From an uncultured Ardenticatenia bacterium (GTDB taxonomy: Bacteria; Chloroflexota; Anaerolineae; 4572-78; NAK82): 64,000 nucleotides of DNA. Shown here piece by piece: positions 51,921 through 62,397 of the stretch. Position 1 is the first letter of the stretch. Every line of letters starts with the position of its first letter. The notes beneath the pieces are model-generated. The model was not told the DNA's origin, did no database searches, and saw only the letters and a program-made list of their open reading frames with translations. The position numbers and the translations under genes were made by a program. Where the stretch lies: the NCBI GenBank assembly GCA_937127125.1, contig CAKZLO010000033.1:69217-133216 (forward strand), written 5' to 3'.

Positions 51921-53294
51921 ATGAGCGAGCCACCGCGAAGCGGACATGAGAGGCAGCCACCAGCTAATGTGGAGGCGGAAGAGGCAGTGCTGGGAGCACT
52001 GCTGATTGACCCGGATGCCATCCTACGCGTGGCAACTTTCCTCCAACCACCTGATTTCTATGTACCGCGCCACCGGGCAATCTTCCAGGCAATCCTCGAT
52101 CTGTATGAGCGCCGTGAGCCAGCTGACCTGGTGACATTGACCGACGAACTCGAGCGACGCGGACAACTGGCATCGGTCGGTGGAGTTGCATATCTCACTG
52201 GTTTGATCAACGCCACACCCACCAGTATCCACGTGGAGTACTATGCTCGCATCGTGGAGCGCACTGCTGTGTTGCGCCGACTGATTCACGCGGCCACTGA
52301 GATAGCCAAGCTCGCATACCAGGATACTGAAGATGTAGACAGCGTTGTGGATCGGGCGGAAAGTCTTATTTTCTCTGTTTCGGAGAAGCGCATCGCGCGC
52401 GATCTGGTGCCCATCCGCCAGGTGCTCGATCAATATTATGACCGCATCGAATACTTGATGCAGCATCAGGGGGAGATGGCAGGCATCCCTACAGGCCTGG
52501 TTGACCTGGACAAATTATTGGGAGGCTTGCAGCGTTCTGATCTGATCATCATTGCCGGACGGCCTGGCATGGGCAAGACCAGCTTGGCCCTTTCCATCGC
52601 ATTACAGGCAGCGCGTCGCTGGCGGAAGCGCATTGCGATTTTCAGCCTGGAGATGAGCAGTGAGCAGGTGGTGCAGCGCCTTATCAGCGCCGAGACAGGC
52701 ATTGATGCCCAGCGTCTGCGTCTGGGGCAGATTCACGAGGATGAGTTCAACGTCTTCGTGGAAGCGACAGGCATACTCTCAGACATCCCGATCTTCATCG
52801 ATGACACGCCAGCCCTCTCGGCGATGGAAATGCGCGCCAAAGCGCGCCGCCTGCACGCCGAACATGGCCTGGACCTGATCATCGTGGATTACTTGCAACT
52901 GATGCGCGGTGAGCTGGGCAGCGATGGGAATCGCGTTCAGGAGATCAGCTTTATCTCGCGTGCTCTCAAGTCACTGGCGCGCGAGCTCAACGTGCCCGTG
53001 GTGGCGCTTAGCCAGCTGTCCCGCGCGGTCGAGTCGCGCCAGGACAAACGTCCCGTGCTCTCCGATCTGCGCGAGAGTGGGAGCATCGAGCAGGACGCCG
53101 ACGTAGTCATCTTTGTCTATCGTGATGTGGAGCACAACCCTGATACGAAGTTCCCCAACTTGGCTGAGATACGCGTGGCCAAACATCGCAGCGGGCCAAC
53201 GGGCATCGTGTCTGCCTATTTCAAGAAGGAGCTGGCGAAGTTCGAGAACGCCGAGGTGCACCGCGAGGTGTTGGGGCAGATGGTGGAAGGATAG
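51921..53294 (+). CDS. dnaB: Replicative DNA helicase DnaB
   Basis: [18 protein letters not shown], Walker [19 protein letters not shown], and SQLSRAVE. No intein. Confidence 0.93.
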
Positions 53295-53302
53295 TCAGGC
53301 GT

Positions 53303-54007
53303 ATGAGCATGCGGTTTGAGGGATTTCCTGCGGGAGAGTTGCAGTACATCACGGTGCCCGATCTGTTTTTCACGGGTTTGGTGCCACTGGTGGATGATCT
53401 GGGCGAATTGAAAGTGATCTTGCATATGATCTGGCTGCGGCAGCGCCGGGGCAAGCAGGTGGTCACAGAAGAGGAACTGAGTACGGATGAAACTCTCATG
53501 GCCGGTCTCAGCGCCCTGGAAGGTGATCCTGCGGAACATCTTCGCGATGCGCTGAGGCGCGCCGTGCAGCGTGGCGCCCTGCTGTGTGAAGTTCTGGAGA
53601 CACCAGATGGGCAGCACAATGTGTACGCCCTGAACAGTGCCGGTGGACGAGATGCGATGGAACGGGTACGCCAAGGGAAGCTGGGCGTGGAGCGAGTCGT
53701 GCTTACGGAGCGTCCTGTAACACGACCGCGCCCCAACATCTTTGAGCTCTACGAAGACAATATCGGTCTCATCTCACCGCTCCTGGCCGATGAGCTGCGT
53801 GAGGCGGAGGCAACGTATCCGGCTGACTGGATCGAGGAGGCATTTCGCATCGCGGTTGAAAACAACGTCCGTAAATGGCGTTATATTCAGGCGATCTTGG
53901 AGGGCTGGGCGACCCGAGGCAAGGATGATCGTTCGGCAGCGCGCCGTGCCGAATCGGAGAAGCGTTGGTATACGGATGAAGAGTTCGAACGGTTCTTCAA
54001 ACATTGA
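53303..54007 (+). CDS. DnaD-domain replication/primosome protein
   Basis: C-terminal region NIFELYEDNIGLISPLLADELREAE...WIEEAFRIAVENNVRKWRYIQAILEGW is a DnaD/DnaB_2 (PF07261)-type pattern. Confidence 0.7.
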   Translation: MSMRFEGFPAGELQYITVPDLFFTGLVPLVDDLGELKVILHMIWLRQRRGKQVVTEEELSTDETLMAGLSALEGDPAEHLRDALRRAVQRGALLCEVLETPDGQHNVYALNSAGGRDAMERVRQGKLGVERVVLTERPVTRPRPNIFELYEDNIGLISPLLADELREAEATYPADWIEEAFRIAVENNVRKWRYIQAILEGWATRGKDDRSAARRAESEKRWYTDEEFERFFKH

Positions 54008-55349
54008 GCGCGAGGTAAAACTTTCGGTGGTCACCAGACACCACCAGACTTGTCCCATTTGCGGAGGAGCAGGGTTCCTGCGCAAGGACGTGCCGGTGGG
54101 GCATCCCGAGTTTGGCAAGGTGGTTGCCTGTGAGTGCCAACGGCCACGCCTGGAAGCAGCGCGACTGAACGATCTGCGCGCGATGAGCAATTTGGAGGCA
54201 ATGAGCCGTTTTACTTTCGAGACCTTCAAGCCTGAGGGTGTCGGGCTCACGGAAGAAAAGCGACATAACCTGCGCAGTGCTTATGAGGCAGCTCGTGCTT
54301 TCGCGGCAAACCCCCAAGGGTGGCTGGTGTTGCTCGGAGGGTATGGCTGTGGGAAAACACACCTGGCAGCTGCGATTGCCAATGAGCAGCTGATTTTGGG
54401 GAGGCCGGTGTTGTTTGTCGTGGTGCCGGATTTGTTGGATCATTTGCGCGCTACTTTCAGCCCTCATAGTACTATCACCTACGATCGACGTTTCGAGAAC
54501 GTGCGTAATGTGACCGTGTTGGTCCTGGACGATCTGGGCACCCAGAGCAGCACTGAGTGGGCGCGGGAGAAGCTCTTCCAGATATTCAACCATCGTTACA
54601 ATCTGCGTCTTCCCACCGTGGTCACCTCCAACTGCAAGCTGGAAAGCATCGACGTCCGCATTCGTTCGCGCCTGATGGATCCTGACCTGGTACGCATTTG
54701 TCATATTACGGCGCCCGATTACCGGAGCAGCGGGAGTGAGATGCTTGGCTATGAGCTCTCGAGCCTGGAGCTGCACAGCGATCAGACATTCGACACGTTC
54801 AGCTTGCGAGAACGTGAGCTCACCCGTGAGCAGGTTGAAAACCTGGAGCAGGTGTTAACCTTCGCGCGGAACTATGCAGCTAACCCCGAGGAATGGCTGG
54901 TGTTGACGGGGGGCTATGGCAGCGGCAAGACCCACTTGGCGGCTGCCATTGCCAACGCGCGCCGTGCGATGGGAGATCACAATGTGCTGTTTGTAGTGGT
55001 CCCGGACTTGTTAGACCATTTGCGCGCCACATATGCGCCGGACAGTCATGTCTCCTACGATACGCGCCTGGAACAGGTACGCAATGCTCCCTTGCTCGTC
55101 TTGGACGACTTGGGCACGCACAGCGCCACGCCGTGGGCGCAAGAGAAGCTCTATCAAATCTTCAACTATCGCTATAATGCTCGTTTGCCCACTGTTATCA
55201 CCATTGCGGACGGGGTCAACGTGGACGAACGGCTCAAAGCGCGCTTGTTTGACGTGCGACATTGCACTATTTTGCGCTTGAACGTGCCCAGCTACCATGG
55301 CCAGACAGCACCCCCAACTGTGTTGCCGCCTCGTCGCAAGCGACGCTAG
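53976..55349 (+). CDS. Helicase-loader-like protein with N-terminal zinc ribbon and two tandem DnaC/DnaI/IstB-type AAA+ modules
   Basis: CPICGGAGF...CECQ, then module 1 (GGYGCGKTH 54336-54359, LVLDDLG, VVTSN). Module 2 lies 573 nt later (GGYGSGKTH 54909-54932, LVLDDLG, VITIA). Start is uncertain (ATG 53976 or GTG 54027). The 5' part of track ORF 53742.. overlaps the DnaD-like gene. Confidence 0.75.
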   Translation: MKSSNGSSNIEREVKLSVVTRHHQTCPICGGAGFLRKDVPVGHPEFGKVVACECQRPRLEAARLNDLRAMSNLEAMSRFTFETFKPEGVGLTEEKRHNLRSAYEAARAFAANPQGWLVLLGGYGCGKTHLAAAIANEQLILGRPVLFVVVPDLLDHLRATFSPHSTITYDRRFENVRNVTVLVLDDLGTQSSTEWAREKLFQIFNHRYNLRLPTVVTSNCKLESIDVRIRSRLMDPDLVRICHITAPDYRSSGSEMLGYELSSLELHSDQTFDTFSLRERELTREQVENLEQVLTFARNYAANPEEWLVLTGGYGSGKTHLAAAIANARRAMGDHNVLFVVVPDLLDHLRATYAPDSHVSYDTRLEQVRNAPLLVLDDLGTHSATPWAQEKLYQIFNYRYNARLPTVITIADGVNVDERLKARLFDVRHCTILRLNVPSYHGQTAPPTVLPPRRKRR

Positions 55350-55491: not shown

Positions 55492-57234
55492 TTATATCTC
55501 CACTTCAAACAGGAGATCTACCAGCTCGTCTACCAGTCTCGCAAGCAGCTCCCGGTCACCGTCACGGCGTGCTTGCTCAATTTCATCGATCTTGGACTGG
55601 ATTTGATCGGCACGGTCGATCTCCAGGCGGCCATTCTGGAGCAGCCGGCGTGCCCGGTTGAGCATTACCTCTACCTCCCCGGTATCAAACGCGTCCGAAT
55701 CTGACCCTGTCCCCTGTGCAGCCAACAGGGCTGCCATCTGTGCCGTAGCGCGGTTGATCTCCTCCGCGCTCAGGCGTTCTTTAGCAGCCATCACGGTGAT
55801 CGTCTTGCGCTGACCGCTCTTGCGGTCGGTCGCTTGCACTCGTAATTGTCCGTTGACGTCCATGTCGAAGCGCACCGTCACGCGTGCCGGCTCACCTGGC
55901 GTCTCTGGTTGTAGTCCCTCGATGCGAAAGCGACCCAACAGGCGATTGCGCGAAGCGACAGGGTGCTCTCCCTGATACACCACGATCTCGACGGTGTCTT
56001 GGCCGGGATAGACGGTGCGAAAGACCTCTTCGTGAGTGCACGGGATCACTGTGTTGCGCCGAATAATAGGACGGTAGATGTCGGGCACAATGGTGTCACC
56101 CATCTGGGTGGCGATCTCAATGCCCAACGAAAACGGCGTGACATCCACCAACACAGTGCCGATCGGCTGCCCGGCAATGATTGCTGCTTGAACGGCTGCG
56201 CCCAGTGCCACCGCTTCTTCCGGATGGATGGCCATCTGAGGCTCGATGCCGGTGTGCTCGGTCAACATCTGCCACACCAGAGGGATGCGCGTTGAACCGC
56301 CTACCAACAGAATCCGGTCGAGATCGCGCGGCGACAGACCAGCATCCTGGAGCACCCGATCCACCGAGTCCAAAGTTCGCTGCAGCAGATCGCGAATGAG
56401 TGCCTCGAACTCGCGACGTGAGACCTCATACTCCAGGTGCAGTGGCCGCCCGCCACTCTCGGTCAGGAACTCTTCGCGTATCCATGCGAAGGGATGCTCA
56501 GAGAGCTCGATCTTGGCGCGTTCTGCGGCGCGTGTTAGGCGTGCCATGGCGCGGTGGTCACGTCTGAGATCAACGCTGTACCTCTCGGCAAATATGCGTG
56601 CCACGTGCTCTGCCAGGCGCAGGTCGAAGTCATCGCCACCCAGCCAGGTATCCCCATGGCTGGCGCGCACTTCCACCACTCCGGCGACCAGTTCTACTAG
56701 TGAACAGTCGAAAGTGCCACCTCCGAGATCATATACCAGCACCAGCTGATCTTCCGCGCGATTCAGGCCATAGGCCAACGCAGCGGCAGTCGGCTCATTG
56801 ATGATGCGCACCACTTCCAGGCCAGCGATCTCGCCGGCATCCCGTGTCGCCTGACGTTGTGCATCCGAGAAATATGCCGGCACCGTGATCACGGCACGGC
56901 GCACGGTGCATCTCAGGCTCGCTTCGGCAACGGCCTTGATCTCATGCAGGATAAAGGCAGAAATCTGCTGGGGAGTGAATGTATAGCGGCCTATTGTGAT
57001 ACGTTCCGCCGAGCCCATCATCCGCTTGATGGATCGCACCGTGTTCTCCGGCGCAAACACAAACTGATTGCGCGCGGGCATTCCTACCAACCACTTACCC
57101 TGCGGGGACAGTCCTACCACGGAGGGCAGCAGACGCTCTCCACCGCGCGTTAGGAGACGTGGCTGACCATCCTGCACTACGGCAACTGCGGTATATGTGG
57201 TGCCCAGGTCAATACCAACGATCGGGTCATCCAT
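55492..57234 (-). CDS. Short non-canonical Hsp70 family ATPase (580 aa)
   Basis: IVGIDLGTTYT, DLGGGTFD, LLVGGSTRIP, VLVDVTPFSLGIEI. The C-terminus ends LLFEVEI. Confidence 0.9.
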   Translation of the reverse strand: MDDPIVGIDLGTTYTAVAVVQDGQPRLLTRGGERLLPSVVGLSPQGKWLVGMPARNQFVFAPENTVRSIKRMMGSAERITIGRYTFTPQQISAFILHEIKAVAEASLRCTVRRAVITVPAYFSDAQRQATRDAGEIAGLEVVRIINEPTAAALAYGLNRAEDQLVLVYDLGGGTFDCSLVELVAGVVEVRASHGDTWLGGDDFDLRLAEHVARIFAERYSVDLRRDHRAMARLTRAAERAKIELSEHPFAWIREEFLTESGGRPLHLEYEVSRREFEALIRDLLQRTLDSVDRVLQDAGLSPRDLDRILLVGGSTRIPLVWQMLTEHTGIEPQMAIHPEEAVALGAAVQAAIIAGQPIGTVLVDVTPFSLGIEIATQMGDTIVPDIYRPIIRRNTVIPCTHEEVFRTVYPGQDTVEIVVYQGEHPVASRNRLLGRFRIEGLQPETPGEPARVTVRFDMDVNGQLRVQATDRKSGQRKTITVMAAKERLSAEEINRATAQMAALLAAQGTGSDSDAFDTGEVEVMLNRARRLLQNGRLEIDRADQIQSKIDEIEQARRDGDRELLARLVDELVDLLFEVEI

Positions 57235-57263
57235 ACGTCAGTGCTCCTATCCCTTTTGTCACG

Positions 57264-57962
57264 CTATGCTCCTGCTGTGGTGCCGGCTGGCCTTCGCACC
57301 TCCTCAGCCGGTGCCGCAGGCTGTGACTGAAGCGAGGGGACGCGGCGCGAGACAATCACCTCTGAGTAGCGCAGGATGCTATTGCGCGTGCGATAGCCAC
57401 AGCGTTCCTCTGCTACCACGATGCCCTCTGGAGCGCGGCCGCTGCTGTCCACTCCAACCGCAACGTGCAGGTGAGGGTCAAAGGGCTGACCTACTGCCGG
57501 GATAGGCACAACATCTGCCTGGGCCAGTACGTCCATCAGACGCTGGTAAACCAGCCAGAGGCCATCCACCCACGCAGAAAGCATTCGGTGCGCCTCGCCC
57601 TCCTCGGCGAGGCGGTTCAGCTGCTGCTTGGCGCTATTGAGTGTGGCTCCCAGTCCATCAATTACTGGCAGAATCGCCAGTATCAGGTCATGTCGCGCCA
57701 ACTCGATCTCTTTGTGATGGTTACGTTGCAGGAAGGCAATGGTCTCTTCCTGGCGGGTGACAGTTGCGCGCAGGATGTTGATCGCCTCTCGTTGTTGCTC
57801 CAATGTCGACTCTTGCAAGGCATTCGCTTTGAATTGCACCCGAGCCAGGCGGCTTAAATGTTCAACCACCTGAGCAACTTCCGGCATCGCTGCGGCGCCG
57901 CTATTAGTCAGCTGCGCTGCCAGCTGGCTTATCTCTTCCCAGATGAGGCGTTTGTGGCTCAT
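57264..57962 (-). CDS. GrpE-family nucleotide exchange factor
   Basis: Trimmed to ATG 57962 (SD GAGGTGGA, ATGA overlap with the upstream stop). Long coiled coil, then GQPFDPHLHVAVGV...GIVVAEERCGYRTRNSILRYSEVIV. Confidence 0.8.
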   Translation of the reverse strand: MSHKRLIWEEISQLAAQLTNSGAAAMPEVAQVVEHLSRLARVQFKANALQESTLEQQREAINILRATVTRQEETIAFLQRNHHKEIELARHDLILAILPVIDGLGATLNSAKQQLNRLAEEGEAHRMLSAWVDGLWLVYQRLMDVLAQADVVPIPAVGQPFDPHLHVAVGVDSSGRAPEGIVVAEERCGYRTRNSILRYSEVIVSRRVPSLQSQPAAPAEEVRRPAGTTAGA

Positions 57963-58294
57963 AGGTCCACCTCGCAAAAATCTTCACTGAAGTCTTCGCG
58001 CGCCAGATCACTCCACGCACGCAGTACAGCAATAACGTCCTCGGGGTGGAATCTTGTATCCACCCCCGCCTTCATCTTAATGCGTCTGTACGGCCACTCT
58101 TCCGGCTGGCACAGCTGAAACAAGCTGTCCTGCGCTTCTGTGGAAGTCAGCTGTTCATAAGCCGCACGGATCGCTTTGAACGCCTCAGGATCGAGTTCTG
58201 GTGGGTGAGCACGCACCTGCTCGAAGTAAGCTCGCCGCACCTCTTCTGGGGATGCGCCGGGTTGGAGCCCTAACACCCGATAGGGATCGCTCAT
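57959..58294 (-). CDS. J-domain-like protein (111 aa) with HPP in place of HPD
   Basis: DPYRVLGLQPGASPEEVRRAYFEQVRAHPPELDPEAFKAIRAAYEQL. The ATG overlaps the TPR-gene stop (ATGA). The C-terminus ends FCEVDL. Confidence 0.75.
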   Translation of the reverse strand: MSDPYRVLGLQPGASPEEVRRAYFEQVRAHPPELDPEAFKAIRAAYEQLTSTEAQDSLFQLCQPEEWPYRRIKMKAGVDTRFHPEDVIAVLRAWSDLAREDFSEDFCEVDL

Positions 58295-60498
58295 TCTATT
58301 TCCCCCATCCGCAATGCCTCAAGCGCTACCCGCGCCTGTGCCATTGTGGCCGTGTCTCGTTTCTGACGAGCCAGGCGTTCCGCCTGTAGCAAGTGCTTTC
58401 TAGCCCTTTGTCCGGCCTTCGGATCAGACAAGAGGTGAATGCCCAGTAACAGGTGTGCTTCTGCTATGTCGGGCGCCAGTGAGAGTGCCTGTTCCAGACA
58501 CTTCACTGCCGGTCCGAATTGCTTCATCGCGTAGAACGCGCGTGCCAAATCTACCAGCCCTCGCGCATCTGTGGCAGCACGTTGTCGTGCTATCTCCAAC
58601 AGCTGGCTTGCCCACTGGTGATGCCCTGTTTTGGCGCACCATTTCCCCAATTGTAGGTAAAAGCTAAGCGGTGGAGGAGGGTGCACCATTTCGGCGCGCC
58701 GCAGATATTCCCGGGCGGACTCTTCCTTGCCTAAGCTCAGCCATGTGAGAATGAGCCAGTAATACGCTTCCAGGTCCTCCGGATGTTCGGCGAGCACGCG
58801 TTCTGCTTCTTCTTGAGCTCTTATCGTGTCACCCAACAGTCCATAGCAGCGAGCCAAGGAAGCGCGCAGGCGTGTATCCCCAGGCATTTGTTCCAGCCCG
58901 TCGCGATATGCAAGGAGAGCGCGACGCAGATTGCCTTTTTCAAGGTGATAGTCGCCTATCTGGCAGTCCAAACGGGCGATATGCTGGCGCGCCGTGGGAT
59001 GTTCCGGATGGACGGCCAGCACGCGCTGCCACGAATGCAGCGCAGCGTACGGATAGCCCATCTGATCCAGAATCTGAGCTTGCCACGCCAGTGCCTCTTC
59101 ATGCTCGGGATGCTCCATCAGGATTTTCATCACGGCGGAATGGGCAGCACTGTAACGTCCATCCTTGACCATAGCTGCCACCCATTCTAGTTGCAACGTC
59201 ACATCTCCGGGAGCGTATCGGAGGGCATTCCGATACGCACGCACGGCGTCCTCGTAGTTGCCAGCACGGCTGAAACATTGCGCTGCCCGCTGCCACAAAC
59301 GTGCTACCTGCTCATCGGACAGAACGTCGTGTGCCCTAGAAGGAGCTTTGCGAGGTCGAGAACGCACAATTTGTTGCCACAGCTCTGCTGCATGGGCAAA
59401 ATGGCCCAACGCTTCCGCTGCGAGGGCTGCGTTGGTCATCAATGTTCTGCCTCTTTGGCCTGCCTGATAGGCAGCCCAAAGATACTTCCACGCCTTGTCC
59501 CAATCACCTTCCAGCGCGGCACGATAGCCCAAATGCTGTCGCACATGATTCGCGATAAGGTTCAGCTCCTCGATGTCCGGTGCATAGCGCAGTCCCTGCT
59601 CTGCCAATTGCAATGCTTCAGATAGCCCTGAAGCTTTATCCTGGGTTTCCAGAGGGAGGGCTTCATTCGAGTTGAGCAGCGTAATGGCAGACTGCGCACA
59701 CGCCCATGCCAGATTGCGGGTCAGCCATGGGGTTTGCATCCCAACGCCCGTTGCAGCTTGCCAGTGTTCTAGCGCTTCTGTGTAGCGGCCGCGCTTCCAC
59801 GCCAGCACGCCTATGTAGTAGTGCGCTGTGCCGATCGCACAGAGTGGCAAAGTGGCATCTTGCAGAGCGGCAGTTAGAAATGTTTTTGCTTCCGGTCTCT
59901 TAGAGCGTACGGCTGCCAGCCCAGCCCATAACGCATCAGCTCCCTGATGGGAGGCAGGATGCACATTCACCCTCCTTCTTCCACGTAGGAGTGCAAAAGC
60001 TTCCGAGAGGTAACCCTGTTCTTCGGGTGACAGAAATTGCCATACCATGTCCTCCTGTGGGCGGCAGCCTGTCTCCACCAGTGCAACTGCCAGCGGGAAC
60101 GCGGCACGCGCATAAGGAGGCGTCCGTTCCAGCAAAGCTCGGTATAGGGGTATGGCAGATTGCCAGACATTTCGCCGATGGTATGCCAGTGCTAGATGAT
60201 ACTGGTAGCGTGGGTCGTCCGGGGCAAGGCGAAGTGCTTCTACGAGATCATATATCGAGTCTTGGGCAGCGCTGAGCGCACGGCGAAAAAATGCTTCCCC
60301 TGTTGCTCTCTCCAGCCGGTGCCGCAACGCATCATCGTGTGGCAACATCGCGGATGCCCGACGCCAGGCTCGGATTGCTGCAGTGTAATCCCCTTGCGCG
60401 AAAGATGTTTTGCCTTGTTCGATCAGAACTTCAGGCGGCAACGGTTGGACGCTCAGGTATTCATCCATGCACCCGGCGCGCCTTGGGCGTGCATTCAT
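58291..60498 (-). CDS. Large all-TPR repeat protein (735 aa)
   Basis: Repeated 34-aa A/Y/L-rich TPR-like units throughout (for example GDYTAAIRAWRRA, YEDAVRAYRNALRYAPGD, PAVKCLEQALSLAPD). No enzymatic motif seen. Start may be ATG 60498 or ATG 60468. Confidence 0.8.
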   Translation of the reverse strand: MNARPRRAGCMDEYLSVQPLPPEVLIEQGKTSFAQGDYTAAIRAWRRASAMLPHDDALRHRLERATGEAFFRRALSAAQDSIYDLVEALRLAPDDPRYQYHLALAYHRRNVWQSAIPLYRALLERTPPYARAAFPLAVALVETGCRPQEDMVWQFLSPEEQGYLSEAFALLRGRRRVNVHPASHQGADALWAGLAAVRSKRPEAKTFLTAALQDATLPLCAIGTAHYYIGVLAWKRGRYTEALEHWQAATGVGMQTPWLTRNLAWACAQSAITLLNSNEALPLETQDKASGLSEALQLAEQGLRYAPDIEELNLIANHVRQHLGYRAALEGDWDKAWKYLWAAYQAGQRGRTLMTNAALAAEALGHFAHAAELWQQIVRSRPRKAPSRAHDVLSDEQVARLWQRAAQCFSRAGNYEDAVRAYRNALRYAPGDVTLQLEWVAAMVKDGRYSAAHSAVMKILMEHPEHEEALAWQAQILDQMGYPYAALHSWQRVLAVHPEHPTARQHIARLDCQIGDYHLEKGNLRRALLAYRDGLEQMPGDTRLRASLARCYGLLGDTIRAQEEAERVLAEHPEDLEAYYWLILTWLSLGKEESAREYLRRAEMVHPPPPLSFYLQLGKWCAKTGHHQWASQLLEIARQRAATDARGLVDLARAFYAMKQFGPAVKCLEQALSLAPDIAEAHLLLGIHLLSDPKAGQRARKHLLQAERLARQKRDTATMAQARVALEALRMGEIE

Positions 60499-60536: not shown

Positions 60537-61955
60537 TCAGCTGGTCTTTTGGTTATTCTCGGACGTTTGTGCAACGAGCTCGTCTGTTGCTCTTGGCAAT
60601 GCAAAGCTGAACTTGCTGCCCTTGCCCAGCTCCGATTCGGCCCATACGCGACCGCCATAACTTTCTACGGTCCGTTTCACGATCGCCAGGCCCACCCCTG
60701 TGCCGCGTTGTACCATCGCCTTCGCTTGCTCGCCGCGGAAGAATTCCTCGAACAAACGCGGCATGTCTTCGCGCGCGATGCCGATGCCGGTGTCCTCCAC
60801 CGAACCTACCACCTGATCGCCATCGTGGGTCAGGGAGATCGCGATGCGTCCACCTGGCCGATTGTACTTAATAGCATTGCTGATCAGGTTGGTCCAGACA
60901 GAACGCAACTGGTCTTCTGTGGCGAGCACGGGCGGTAGATCGGGAGCAACTTTCACCTCTATAGATAAACCTTTGCTCTCTGCTTCTACCCGTAGTAGCC
61001 CCAATACACTTTCCAACACTTTTTCTGCCCGCACTGGCACACCCTGAGCGGGGCCTTCGATGCGACGTGCTCGTACCAGTTCCAAGAGGTCGCGTATGAG
61101 GTCCAGCAGCTCATACGCACGTGTCTGAGCGCGTTCCAACACCTCGCGTTGCTTTTCCGGCGGGGCGTAGCCGCCCAGGACGAGATTCAGCGCACTGATG
61201 ATAGCACCCATCGGTGCCCGCAGCTCATGCGCGACCATCACGATGAACTGTGTACGGGCAGCATCCAGCTGGCGTAGGCGCTCGTTCATCTCGGTGAGCT
61301 CGCTGCGGTTGATCTCGCATATCTGGCTGGCTTGCAGCAGCTCCTGAGTGCGCCGTCGCAACCGCTCGGCAACCGATGAGGCCATAGCGGCGGCCAGTAG
61401 CAGCGTTAGGGTGACAGCTGTGACGTGTGCAGCTGTATAAACTGGGTTCGCGTAGTGCAAAGGGTCGGCCAGCTGGGGCAAATGGACATGGGGCAACCAG
61501 CCGCTCATTTCAGAAAGAGCCATGCCCGCATACAAGCTCGATGCCAGCAGCGCCACGCCGAAACTGGCCAAACGCGAGAGCAGAATACTGGCTATTATTA
61601 CGTGAAAGAGCAAGAAAACCCCAAAGGGGTTTTCGATTCCTCCGCTAAAGTGCAGCAGAGCTGTCAGAGCGAGCAGATCGAACACAATCTGCACCGCCGC
61701 AAAAATCGGAGAGCGGCGGCGTCGGATGCCTGTACCACGTCGTCGCCACAGATAACGGGCATAGAGCAGAAATAGGAGGTTGTAGAGAGCGATAACCGCT
61801 GTCACGGTTACCAGCGGCAATACGGGCAAGGCTGGCTCCACCAGACGCGCAATGGCAATCCCGGCCAGGGTGCTTACCACTGCTACCCAACGCAGTCGGA
61901 TCAGCCAGCCAATACGCTCTACAAGCTCCAGTTTCAGCGGGTGCAGATCGATCAA
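60537..61955 (-). CDS. Polytopic sensor histidine kinase (6 TM - HisKA - HATPase)
   Basis: The TTG start overlaps the RR stop. H-box MVAHELRAPMGAI, N-box ISNAIKYNRPGG, DTGIGI, GTGVGL. Confidence 0.88.
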   Translation of the reverse strand: MIDLHPLKLELVERIGWLIRLRWVAVVSTLAGIAIARLVEPALPVLPLVTVTAVIALYNLLFLLYARYLWRRRGTGIRRRRSPIFAAVQIVFDLLALTALLHFSGGIENPFGVFLLFHVIIASILLSRLASFGVALLASSLYAGMALSEMSGWLPHVHLPQLADPLHYANPVYTAAHVTAVTLTLLLAAAMASSVAERLRRRTQELLQASQICEINRSELTEMNERLRQLDAARTQFIVMVAHELRAPMGAIISALNLVLGGYAPPEKQREVLERAQTRAYELLDLIRDLLELVRARRIEGPAQGVPVRAEKVLESVLGLLRVEAESKGLSIEVKVAPDLPPVLATEDQLRSVWTNLISNAIKYNRPGGRIAISLTHDGDQVVGSVEDTGIGIAREDMPRLFEEFFRGEQAKAMVQRGTGVGLAIVKRTVESYGGRVWAESELGKGSKFSFALPRATDELVAQTSENNQKTS

Positions 61956-62344
61956 CTCTTCGTGCCGACAATCTCATTGGCAATGCGCAATACCTCTGCC
62001 ATTGGTACCGGTTTGGTCAGAAATTGATCAACTGACAGAGGCTTATCGGTTGGAAAATGTCCAATGTACTCGGTGTCCATGATAGAAGTGAGCATGATGA
62101 TCGGGATATCCCACAACTCGGGATCTTCCTTAATTGTCGCTGTCACGTCAACACCCTCGGTGGGGTGTGCCATTACCACGTCTAAAAAGACCAGGTCAGG
62201 CTTCTCGCGTCGCATGGTCTCCAAACCGAGCCTGCCGCTGGCAGCGGTCAGCACCTCAAAGCCATCACTCTCCAGCCCGATCCGCATAAACTCACAAAAG
62301 TCGGGATCATCATCAATAATCAGCACTTTGCCCTTGGATGCCAT
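61952..62344 (-). CDS. Single-domain (CheY-like) response regulator
   Basis: Trimmed to ATG 62344 (SD AAGGAGGA). VLIIDDD...DLVFLDVVM...LTKP. No output domain. Confidence 0.88.
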   Translation of the reverse strand: MASKGKVLIIDDDPDFCEFMRIGLESDGFEVLTAASGRLGLETMRREKPDLVFLDVVMAHPTEGVDVTATIKEDPELWDIPIIMLTSIMDTEYIGHFPTDKPLSVDQFLTKPVPMAEVLRIANEIVGTKS

Positions 62345-62397
62345 CGGGGGTCCTCCTTGCATTGTAGCCTGCTGAAATGTACATCAGACCTATGTCA

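Follow-up and report, generated by a model that had tools for sequence, protein, structure and literature searches.

The question raised by the locus described here is whether a bacterial Hsp70 machine might be held together by a tetratricopeptide repeat (TPR) protein that reads the last residues of its partners. In eukaryotes, the (I/M)EEVD tails of Hsp70 and Hsp90 dock into the carboxylate-clamp TPR co-chaperones Hop, CHIP and PP5, and to our knowledge such docking of Hsp70 tails on TPR proteins is considered a eukaryotic trait; a genuine counterpart in bacteria would be notable. The locus lies in a stretch of 64,000 nucleotides from an uncultured Ardenticatenia bacterium (GenBank assembly GCA_937127125.1, contig CAKZLO010000033.1), hereafter the window, and is a minus-strand operon of four closely spaced genes that code, in this order, for a TPR protein, a J-like protein, a GrpE-like protein and an Hsp70. 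An earlier note on this DNA had pointed out that the Hsp70 ends in F-E-V-E-I (55495-55509, minus strand) and the J-like protein in C-E-V-D-L (57962-57976, minus strand), next to a gene for 735 amino acids of TPR repeats and little else, and had proposed that the TPR protein recruits both of them through these tails. The two endings are exactly as described, with the stops TAA at 55492-55494 and TGA at 57959-57961, and Pfam finds only TPR repeats in the product of the adjacent gene, but the data do not support a bacterial analogue of the EEVD kind. They leave us with an Hsp70 module of four genes that spans the phylum, apparently an undescribed variant of specialised Hsp70 systems, present in 260 species-level genomes. 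In our opinion this module is probably a dedicated Chloroflexota Hsp70 system with a split J-plus-TPR co-chaperone, in which the tail of the J-like protein would tether it to a partner, the likeliest being the TPR protein.

The operon of the window is composed as follows:

58291-60498, minus strand: gene of the TPR protein, an open reading frame of 735 amino acids with about 17-18 TPR-like motifs and matches to Pfam TPR families only

58291-58294, minus strand: ATGA overlap of the TPR stop and the J-like start, read from the sequence

57959-58294, minus strand: gene of the J-like protein, 111 amino acids, with a J-domain fold at residues 1-52 and a C-terminal half at residues 53-111

57264-57962, minus strand: gene of the GrpE-like nucleotide exchange factor, 232 amino acids, starting at the ATG at 57962

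55492-57234, minus strand: gene of the Hsp70 paralog, 580 amino acids, with a nucleotide-binding domain (NBD), the beta part of the substrate-binding domain (SBD-beta) and a helical lid

A profile of the J-like protein built from 16 homologs led to the 260 species-level genomes, and the best 80 loci were fetched; the counts given below refer to the 81 J-like sequences (window plus 80 loci), the 70 Hsp70 sequences and the 73 TPR sequences (window plus 72) that were obtained in this way. In 80 of 80 loci the genes follow one another as TPR, J-like, GrpE-like and Hsp70, as far as the contig extends. Nearly all of these loci are labelled Chloroflexota (Anaerolineae, Chloroflexales, Thermoflexales, Caldilineaceae and Ardenticatenaceae), a few being labelled as Chthonomonadales, Latescibacterota or Pseudomonadota metagenome-assembled genomes. 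No further flanking gene family is common to more than 10 of the 80 loci, and no conserved neighbour hints at a client. Since the order is kept and no further neighbour is widely shared, we consider the module a self-contained four-gene unit. The TPR and J-like genes are always two genes, a fusion between them being found in none of the 80 loci, and the distribution supports the TPR gene as an obligate partner of the module, so that this part of the docking idea stands. Start/stop overlaps link three of the four genes in the window; the TPR/J-like junction is variable, the two genes lying 0 to about 100 nucleotides apart in the orthologs. The anti-phage defence models of PADLOC gave no relevant match to the module, and no description of the four-gene operon was found in the searchable literature.

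Concerning the chaperone itself, the Hsp70 of the window matches Pfam HSP70 with 540 bits (E = 5e-162), its interdomain linker VLVDVTPFSLG aligns to that of DnaK, and the AlphaFold2 (AF2) model exhibits the whole Hsp70/DnaK architecture, that is, NBD, linker, SBD-beta and lid. With the NCBIfam models of true DnaK it reaches 575.1 bits for NF001413 (cutoff 648) and 568.4 bits for TIGR02350 (cutoff 822.55), and because these scores lie under the cutoffs we regard it as a DnaK paralog. An insertion of eight residues, conserved in the family, occupies loop L1,2 of SBD-beta (residues ~375-384) at the substrate arch marked by M404 of DnaK, and a second insertion, modelled with low confidence (predicted local distance difference test, pLDDT, below 50), lies within the lid at residues 506-518; the two insertions suggest an altered handling of clients. 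The exchange factor scores 79.7 bits with Pfam GrpE PF01025 (cutoff 25.8) and falls under all the NCBIfam GrpE equivalog cutoffs, and its orthologs begin with MSHKR at the same site as the ATG at 57962. The J-like protein matches Pfam DnaJ PF00226 with 33.9 bits (cutoff 27.8), and the AF2 model of its residues 1-52 (pLDDT about 90) contains two helices, at 16-29 and 36-51. The helix II-III loop is shortened, and the HPD that is invariant between helices II and III of J-domain proteins is replaced by H-P-P-E at residues 30-33 in the window; in the family the corresponding region reads [H/Y]-[P/S]-P-E (H 56, Y 21; P 66, S 11; P 81, E 81), with the last proline and the glutamate invariant. The J-like protein is devoid of a client-binding domain.

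If the two acidic endings were docking peptides, their conservation in the syntenic orthologs would be expected, as the earlier note had anticipated. The endings turned out to be variable: E[VI][DE][LI]-COOH occurs in 8 of the 81 J-like proteins and E[VI][DE][LIV]-COOH in just one of the 70 Hsp70 sequences, that of the window, which is also the only locus among 81 in which the Hsp70 and J-like tails both fit the pattern. The nearest Hsp70 relatives (88-89% identity) terminate in FEIEV and the nearest J-like relatives in REVDL; since these come close and only the window fits with both proteins, the resemblance is real but lineage-specific. Nor is the J-like tail acidic as a rule, the mean net side-chain charge of its last six residues being +0.7 over the 81 sequences, with a net basic tail in most members of the family. 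Thus, the idea that both tails dock by their free carboxylates into clamp TPR units, and that Hsp70 and J-like protein are recruited in this way, can rely on the endings of the window and of its nearest relatives and on the constant presence of the TPR gene, and has against it the rarity of these endings and the charge of the J-like tail.

The end of the Hsp70 adds a structural argument to the same discussion:

55495-55530, minus strand: end of the last lid helix of the Hsp70, D-E-L-V-D-L-L-F-E-V-E-I, placed by alignment to DnaK and by the AF2 helix

In the family the Hsp70 end follows the consensus E-E-L-L-D-L-L-[FY]-[DE]-Φ-[DE] (Φ, hydrophobic residue), with L571 invariant and L575 and E579 conserved in at least 90% of the sequences, and is followed by 0-22 variable, mostly acidic residues (none in 4 orthologs, one in 24, two in 23, and up to 22), the very last residue being E, D, A, G, I, M or others. 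Because of these further residues the motif is not anchored at a free carboxylate. The DnaK hidden Markov models (HMMs) match the Hsp70 of the window from residue 5 to 572/574, stopping a dozen residues short of the model ends, and phmmer aligned its residues 85-572 with residues 109-592 of E. coli DnaK. In a MAFFT alignment of the family with E. coli DnaK, LFEVEI falls on DnaK 596-601 (LMEIAQ), and the window Hsp70 has no counterpart of the 37-residue disordered tail of DnaK. The sequences of E. coli DnaK and of HOP (see below) gave the expected results in checks (638 amino acids for DnaK; K8 of HOP detected). The AF2 model, based on 54 sequences (mean pLDDT 85.6), places a helix at 561-578, with only two terminal residues left over. 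An EEVD-type contact requires an extended peptide on a flexible linker, and neither the DnaK alignment nor the AF2 model revealed a flexible linker ahead of the Hsp70 end. On the basis of the alignments and of this model, LLFEVEI is best interpreted as the terminal part of a lid helix that is conserved, acidic and hydrophobic, and not as a flexible, carboxylate-anchored EEVD-type tail; for the clamp idea, this means that the motif of the Hsp70 would sit in a predicted helix, without a linker and at a variable distance from the C-terminus.

It had also been stated that canonical bacterial DnaK is not known to use such a tail. This calls for some qualification: the paralog of the window lacks the DnaK tail altogether, and canonical DnaK does harbour a conserved acidic motif in its disordered C-terminus, 625-DDVVDAEFEEVKD-637, as described for P. 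putida (PMC7918210, citing Smock et al. 2011). The two motifs are alike in being acidic-hydrophobic with a central aromatic residue (ΦΦDxxFE in DnaK, LLDLLFDLE in the module Hsp70) and differ in that the motif of the window lies in the lid helix, at the position of DnaK 596-601, with the disordered tail missing. Homology between LLDLLFDLE and the DnaK tail motif DVVDAEFEEV was considered and rejected on account of the HMM coordinates, the MAFFT alignment and the AF2 helix. As a side observation, the Hsp70s of L013, L021, L029, L040, L045, L069 and L072 carry long poly-acidic extensions beyond the helix motif (e.g. ..LMYDLEGDDEDDEDEGEN); orthologous Hsp70s thus tolerate or favour an acidic appendix, the sequence of which is not fixed.

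A different picture emerges from the C-terminus of the J-like protein, where three features overlap:

57962-57991, minus strand: C-terminal motif of the J-like protein, F-S-E-D-F-C-E-V-D-L-COOH, defined by position-wise counts over the 81 sequences, alignments and AF2

57968-57973, minus strand: GAGGTG, a hexamer that resembles a Shine-Dalgarno site for the GrpE-like gene and whose bases are also the E-V codons of the J-like tail

57959-57962, minus strand: ATGA overlap of the J-like stop and the GrpE-like start, read from the sequence and compatible with translational coupling

The consensus of the 81 J-like tails is [FW]-x-x-D-[YF]-[RK]-x-[VI]-x-L-COOH: F or W at position -9, D at -6, Y or F at -5, R or K at -4, P, E or K at -3 (28, 24 and 11 sequences, respectively), V or I at -2, a variable residue at -1 (basic in 36, acidic in 16) and L at 0. 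The exact ending [VI]xL-COOH is found in 61 of the 81 and the looser Φ-x-Φ-COOH in 68, many tails terminating in V-[KRQ]-L-COOH. Residues 53-111, tail included, are modelled by AF2 as coil with one short helix at a pLDDT of 50-66, so that the flexible linker expected of a docking peptide is present here.

The overlap of the J-like tail with the beginning of the next gene suggests a trivial explanation, namely that its conservation is a by-product of the signals for translation of the GrpE-like gene (Shine-Dalgarno sequence and start codon), the peptide having no function of its own. Indeed, GAGGTG lies 5 nucleotides upstream of the GrpE-like ATG, which in turn shares bases with the terminal Leu codon and the stop (CTATGA), and the junction reads ATGA in 43 of the 80 loci, GTGA in 19 and TTGA in 2. 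The overlap does account for the choice of codon, since CTA, otherwise rare, is the commonest codon of the terminal Leu (30 of 61) and 64 of the 80 junctions are of the NTGA type. It does not account for the amino acids, because the codons are diverse, the Leu is kept without overlap and the conservation extends nine residues upstream. In fact, the overlap constrains the last codon at its third base only, and the Leu is encoded by five codons (CTA, CTG, TTA, TTG, CTT) and retained also in the 16 loci without gene overlap; the V/I at -2 is encoded by seven codons, including ATT and ATC, which are not Shine-Dalgarno-like; and the conserved F/W, D, Y/F and R/K positions lie beyond any ribosome-binding site. 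A tail without peptide function appears, therefore, very unlikely. An origin of the tail from the overlap alone was among the candidates rejected, being ruled out by the codon diversity.

According to another explanation, the hydrophobic C-terminus might mark the J-like protein for degradation and thereby control the amount of the co-chaperone. Bacterial proteases do recognize hydrophobic C-termini such as the ssrA tag, and the 68 tails ending in Φ-x-Φ-COOH would be compatible with this role; still, the conserved motif is considerably longer than three residues and has charged positions in it, and linkage of a protease gene to the module was not seen in the 80 loci, which makes a degradation signal extremely improbable. 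On the sequence evidence, the J-like tail is most reasonably regarded as a genuine flexible peptide motif, conserved at the protein level.

This motif calls for a binding partner, and the question is whether the TPR protein has a site for it. The TPR protein is rich in arginine (69 R), and in the alignment with its 72 orthologs the most conserved blocks are residues 29-120, with E68, R72, R73, Y100, H101 and H107, and residues 330-385, with W333, N356, E362, W374, R379, R381, P382 and R383; R73, Y100, H101 and H107 face the groove. The clamp-like K/N/N/K/R unit hypothesized earlier could not be recovered by any of three approaches. The strict clamp regular expression K-x3-N ... N ... K-x3-R, which detected the positive control HOP TPR1, matched none of the 73 TPR proteins; a looser expression matched 7 of the 73, at non-homologous positions and with the window protein not among them. 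The HOP-TPR1-like segment found by BLASTP (residues 396-516, also matched by 7kw7_E) carries W402, A406, E438, E468 and W472 at the five clamp positions. Lastly, a repeat-register scan calibrated on HOP found no TPR triple with clamp residues, the N-terminal triple reading I,K | G | R,H. The conserved arginines R72, R73, R379, R381 and R383 are the one property of the TPR protein that favours docking of acidic tails into a clamp; taken together with the rarity of the endings, the basic J-like tail and the helical Hsp70 end, the lack of a canonical clamp renders the EEVD-type model highly improbable. We rather interpret the shared E-V-[DE]-[IL] endings as coincidental, two motifs that, judging from the alignments, are unrelated having come to look alike in the lineage of the window. 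The conserved blocks with their groove-facing residues and the cluster N356...R379/R381/R383 make a non-canonical binding groove possible, and the TPR protein may hold one.

Further support for a partnership between J domains of this type and TPR repeats comes from more distant relatives. A search of 1.84 billion representatives with the J-like profile gave 558 hits at E<=1e-10; among the best 150 hits, 33 of the 34 long proteins match, at E<4e-6, the generic repeat region of the TPR protein profile, and in 7 of the 10 long hits scanned with Pfam the TPR repeats follow directly after a J domain of the [HY]PPE type. Three of these seven fusions (P0255, P0273 and P0302) terminate in a SEC-C zinc motif, CPCGSGKKYKxCC; no description of a J-TPR-SEC-C architecture was found in the literature searched.

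On the whole, we infer the following scheme. A tail-less Hsp70 with an insertion at its substrate arch would cycle with its own GrpE-like exchange factor, and two proteins, a minimal J-like one and a large TPR adaptor, would share the J function, the TPR protein perhaps providing the binding of clients or adaptors. The C-terminal motif would tether the J-like protein to its partner; the TPR protein appears the likeliest, the alternatives being the SBD of the Hsp70 or the GrpE-like protein. Docking of the J-like tail on the TPR protein is plausible in view of the conserved motif and of the constant gene pair, so that the proposal of a TPR-docked co-chaperone is retained for the J-like protein and abandoned as regards the EEVD chemistry and the Hsp70 tail.

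Some observations weigh against this scheme or against parts of it. About a quarter of the J-like orthologs lack the exact [VI]xL-COOH ending, some having 1-4 extra residues; in some of the wider relatives a few more residues come after the core D[FY]Rx[VI], and in one a GrpE domain is fused there. The latter case, P0298, is a J-like + GrpE fusion of 536 amino acids with a full-length J-like region, in which the tail motif is internal (EDLTPID); it may have arisen naturally or be an artefact, caused by a frameshift in the overlapping genes. From the internal motif and from the deviant or extended endings it follows that a free carboxylate is preferred, not obligatory. The TPR parts of the fused J-TPR relatives match only the generic repeat region of the window TPR family; they therefore represent a recurrent domain partnership and not an orthologous fusion. 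The last Hsp70 helix is predicted with reduced confidence (pLDDT 76, then 64, over the last 20 residues) and, unusually hydrophobic and conserved as it is, could itself be a partner-binding element. Finally, a comparison of loci with deviant tails (not [VI]xL-COOH; 18-19 loci, with statistics that ignore phylogeny) does not single out the TPR protein. In these loci the TPR residues 29-120 are less conserved (0.765 vs 0.851, p=0.008, kinship ignored), as is SBD-beta of the Hsp70 (0.828 vs 0.878, p=0.0005, kinship ignored), while GrpE, the NBD and the C-terminal TPR half are not less conserved. The best columns of the TPR protein cluster at residues 38-91, none passing the Bonferroni correction, and no column of the Hsp70 SBD is significant (smallest p=0.02). 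The association is a weak hint that applies equally to the TPR protein and to SBD-beta and does not separate them.

It is in this context that an action of the J-like tail on the chaperone itself has to be considered, either as a pseudo-substrate or regulatory peptide for the Hsp70 SBD or as a contact to the GrpE-like protein. The sequence [YF][RK]x[VI]xL, with a basic residue beside hydrophobic ones, resembles the client peptides that DnaK prefers; the lower conservation of SBD-beta, the family-specific insertion of eight amino acids at the substrate arch and the existence of the P0298 fusion point in the same direction. On the other hand, no single SBD column is tied to the type of tail, the block-level signal may merely reflect the divergence of lineages, and the fusion is a single example that could derive from assembly or frameshift. 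Moreover, a terminal Leu would fit poorly at the centre of the DnaK cleft, where the backbone is hydrogen-bonded on either side. On balance we regard an action on the chaperone as unlikely. We are similarly doubtful about a convergent, non-EEVD form of bacterial TPR docking, in which the J-like tail would lie in the N-terminal TPR groove (R72/R73, Y100, H101, H107) and the terminal helix of the Hsp70 on the Arg-rich block (N356, R379, R381, R383), the TPR protein acting as a putative scaffold of the whole cycle for specific clients.

Coming back to the split co-chaperone system that we favour, its position among known systems can be outlined. It shares with the EEVD-TPR systems an Hsp70 machine genetically tied to a TPR protein and a conserved, flexible motif at an extreme C-terminus, here that of the J-like protein; it differs from them in that its motifs are not acidic and EEVD-like, the Hsp70 end is helical and the clamp is absent, and the tail-bearing partner would be the J protein instead of the Hsp70. 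The TPR domain of PEX5 binds the PTS1 tripeptide S-K-L-COOH, and a TPR protein reading a C-terminal peptide with Leu-COOH and a basic residue at -1 would be similar, by analogy only; the V/I at position -2 of the J-like tail differs from the S/A/C of PTS1.

HscA/HscB and HscC/DjlC of E. coli are examples of DnaK paralog systems. DnaK paralogs are most frequent in Chloroflexi (PMC11019930), and MxDnaK2 of Myxococcus xanthus, which lacks a C-terminal tail, is encoded in a grpE-dnaK2 operon (PMC11019930). The module can be likened to MxDnaK2, as far as descriptions go, in that a second Hsp70, tail-less and encoded behind its own grpE, shares an operon with dedicated co-chaperones. What distinguishes it from MxDnaK2, HscA/HscB and HscC/DjlC is the presence of a TPR protein and of an HPD-less J-like protein, neither of which is described for these systems in the literature searched. 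As in DNAJC7/TPR2 and DNAJC3/p58IPK, a J domain and TPR repeats would serve an Hsp70, and relatives of the J-like domain are fused to TPR repeats; unlike in DNAJC7-type proteins, the J-like and TPR parts of the module are separate polypeptides, with the TPR gene first and [HY]PPE in place of HPD. A single polypeptide with J and TPR parts was found neither in the window nor in the 80 loci, such fusions occurring only in distant relatives. DnaJ-TPR proteins of class C are among the commonest J-protein architectures, according to a survey that discarded all the sequences without a full HPD (bioRxiv 10.1101/2022.02.28.482344). Since the survey dropped such sequences, the [HY]PPE family would have been excluded from it, and large surveys of J proteins that proceed in this way would have missed the J-like family.

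The interest of the module lies in a J domain that, with an invariant PPE in place of HPD, stays linked to its own Hsp70 and GrpE, and in an Hsp70 whose substrate arch is remodelled and whose C-terminal tail is missing. The conserved C-terminal motif could explain how a J protein devoid of further domains is targeted.

As for the other genes of the window, a gene for a PilS-like histidine kinase with six transmembrane segments (61955..60537, minus strand) ends 38 nucleotides before the TPR gene; no more than about 10 of the 80 loci have a histidine kinase gene beside the module. A sigma-70-like promoter with a perfect 12/12 match (62425 to 62398, minus strand) precedes the gene of a receiver-only response regulator (62362..61952) and the kinase gene. 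On the other side, a plus-strand gene (53742-55349) converges on the Hsp70 gene; it follows the genes for a DnaB helicase (51921-53294) and a DnaD-like protein (53303-54007), and codes for a protein of 535 amino acids with two tandem IstB/DnaC-like AAA+ modules and an N-terminal CxxC..C motif.

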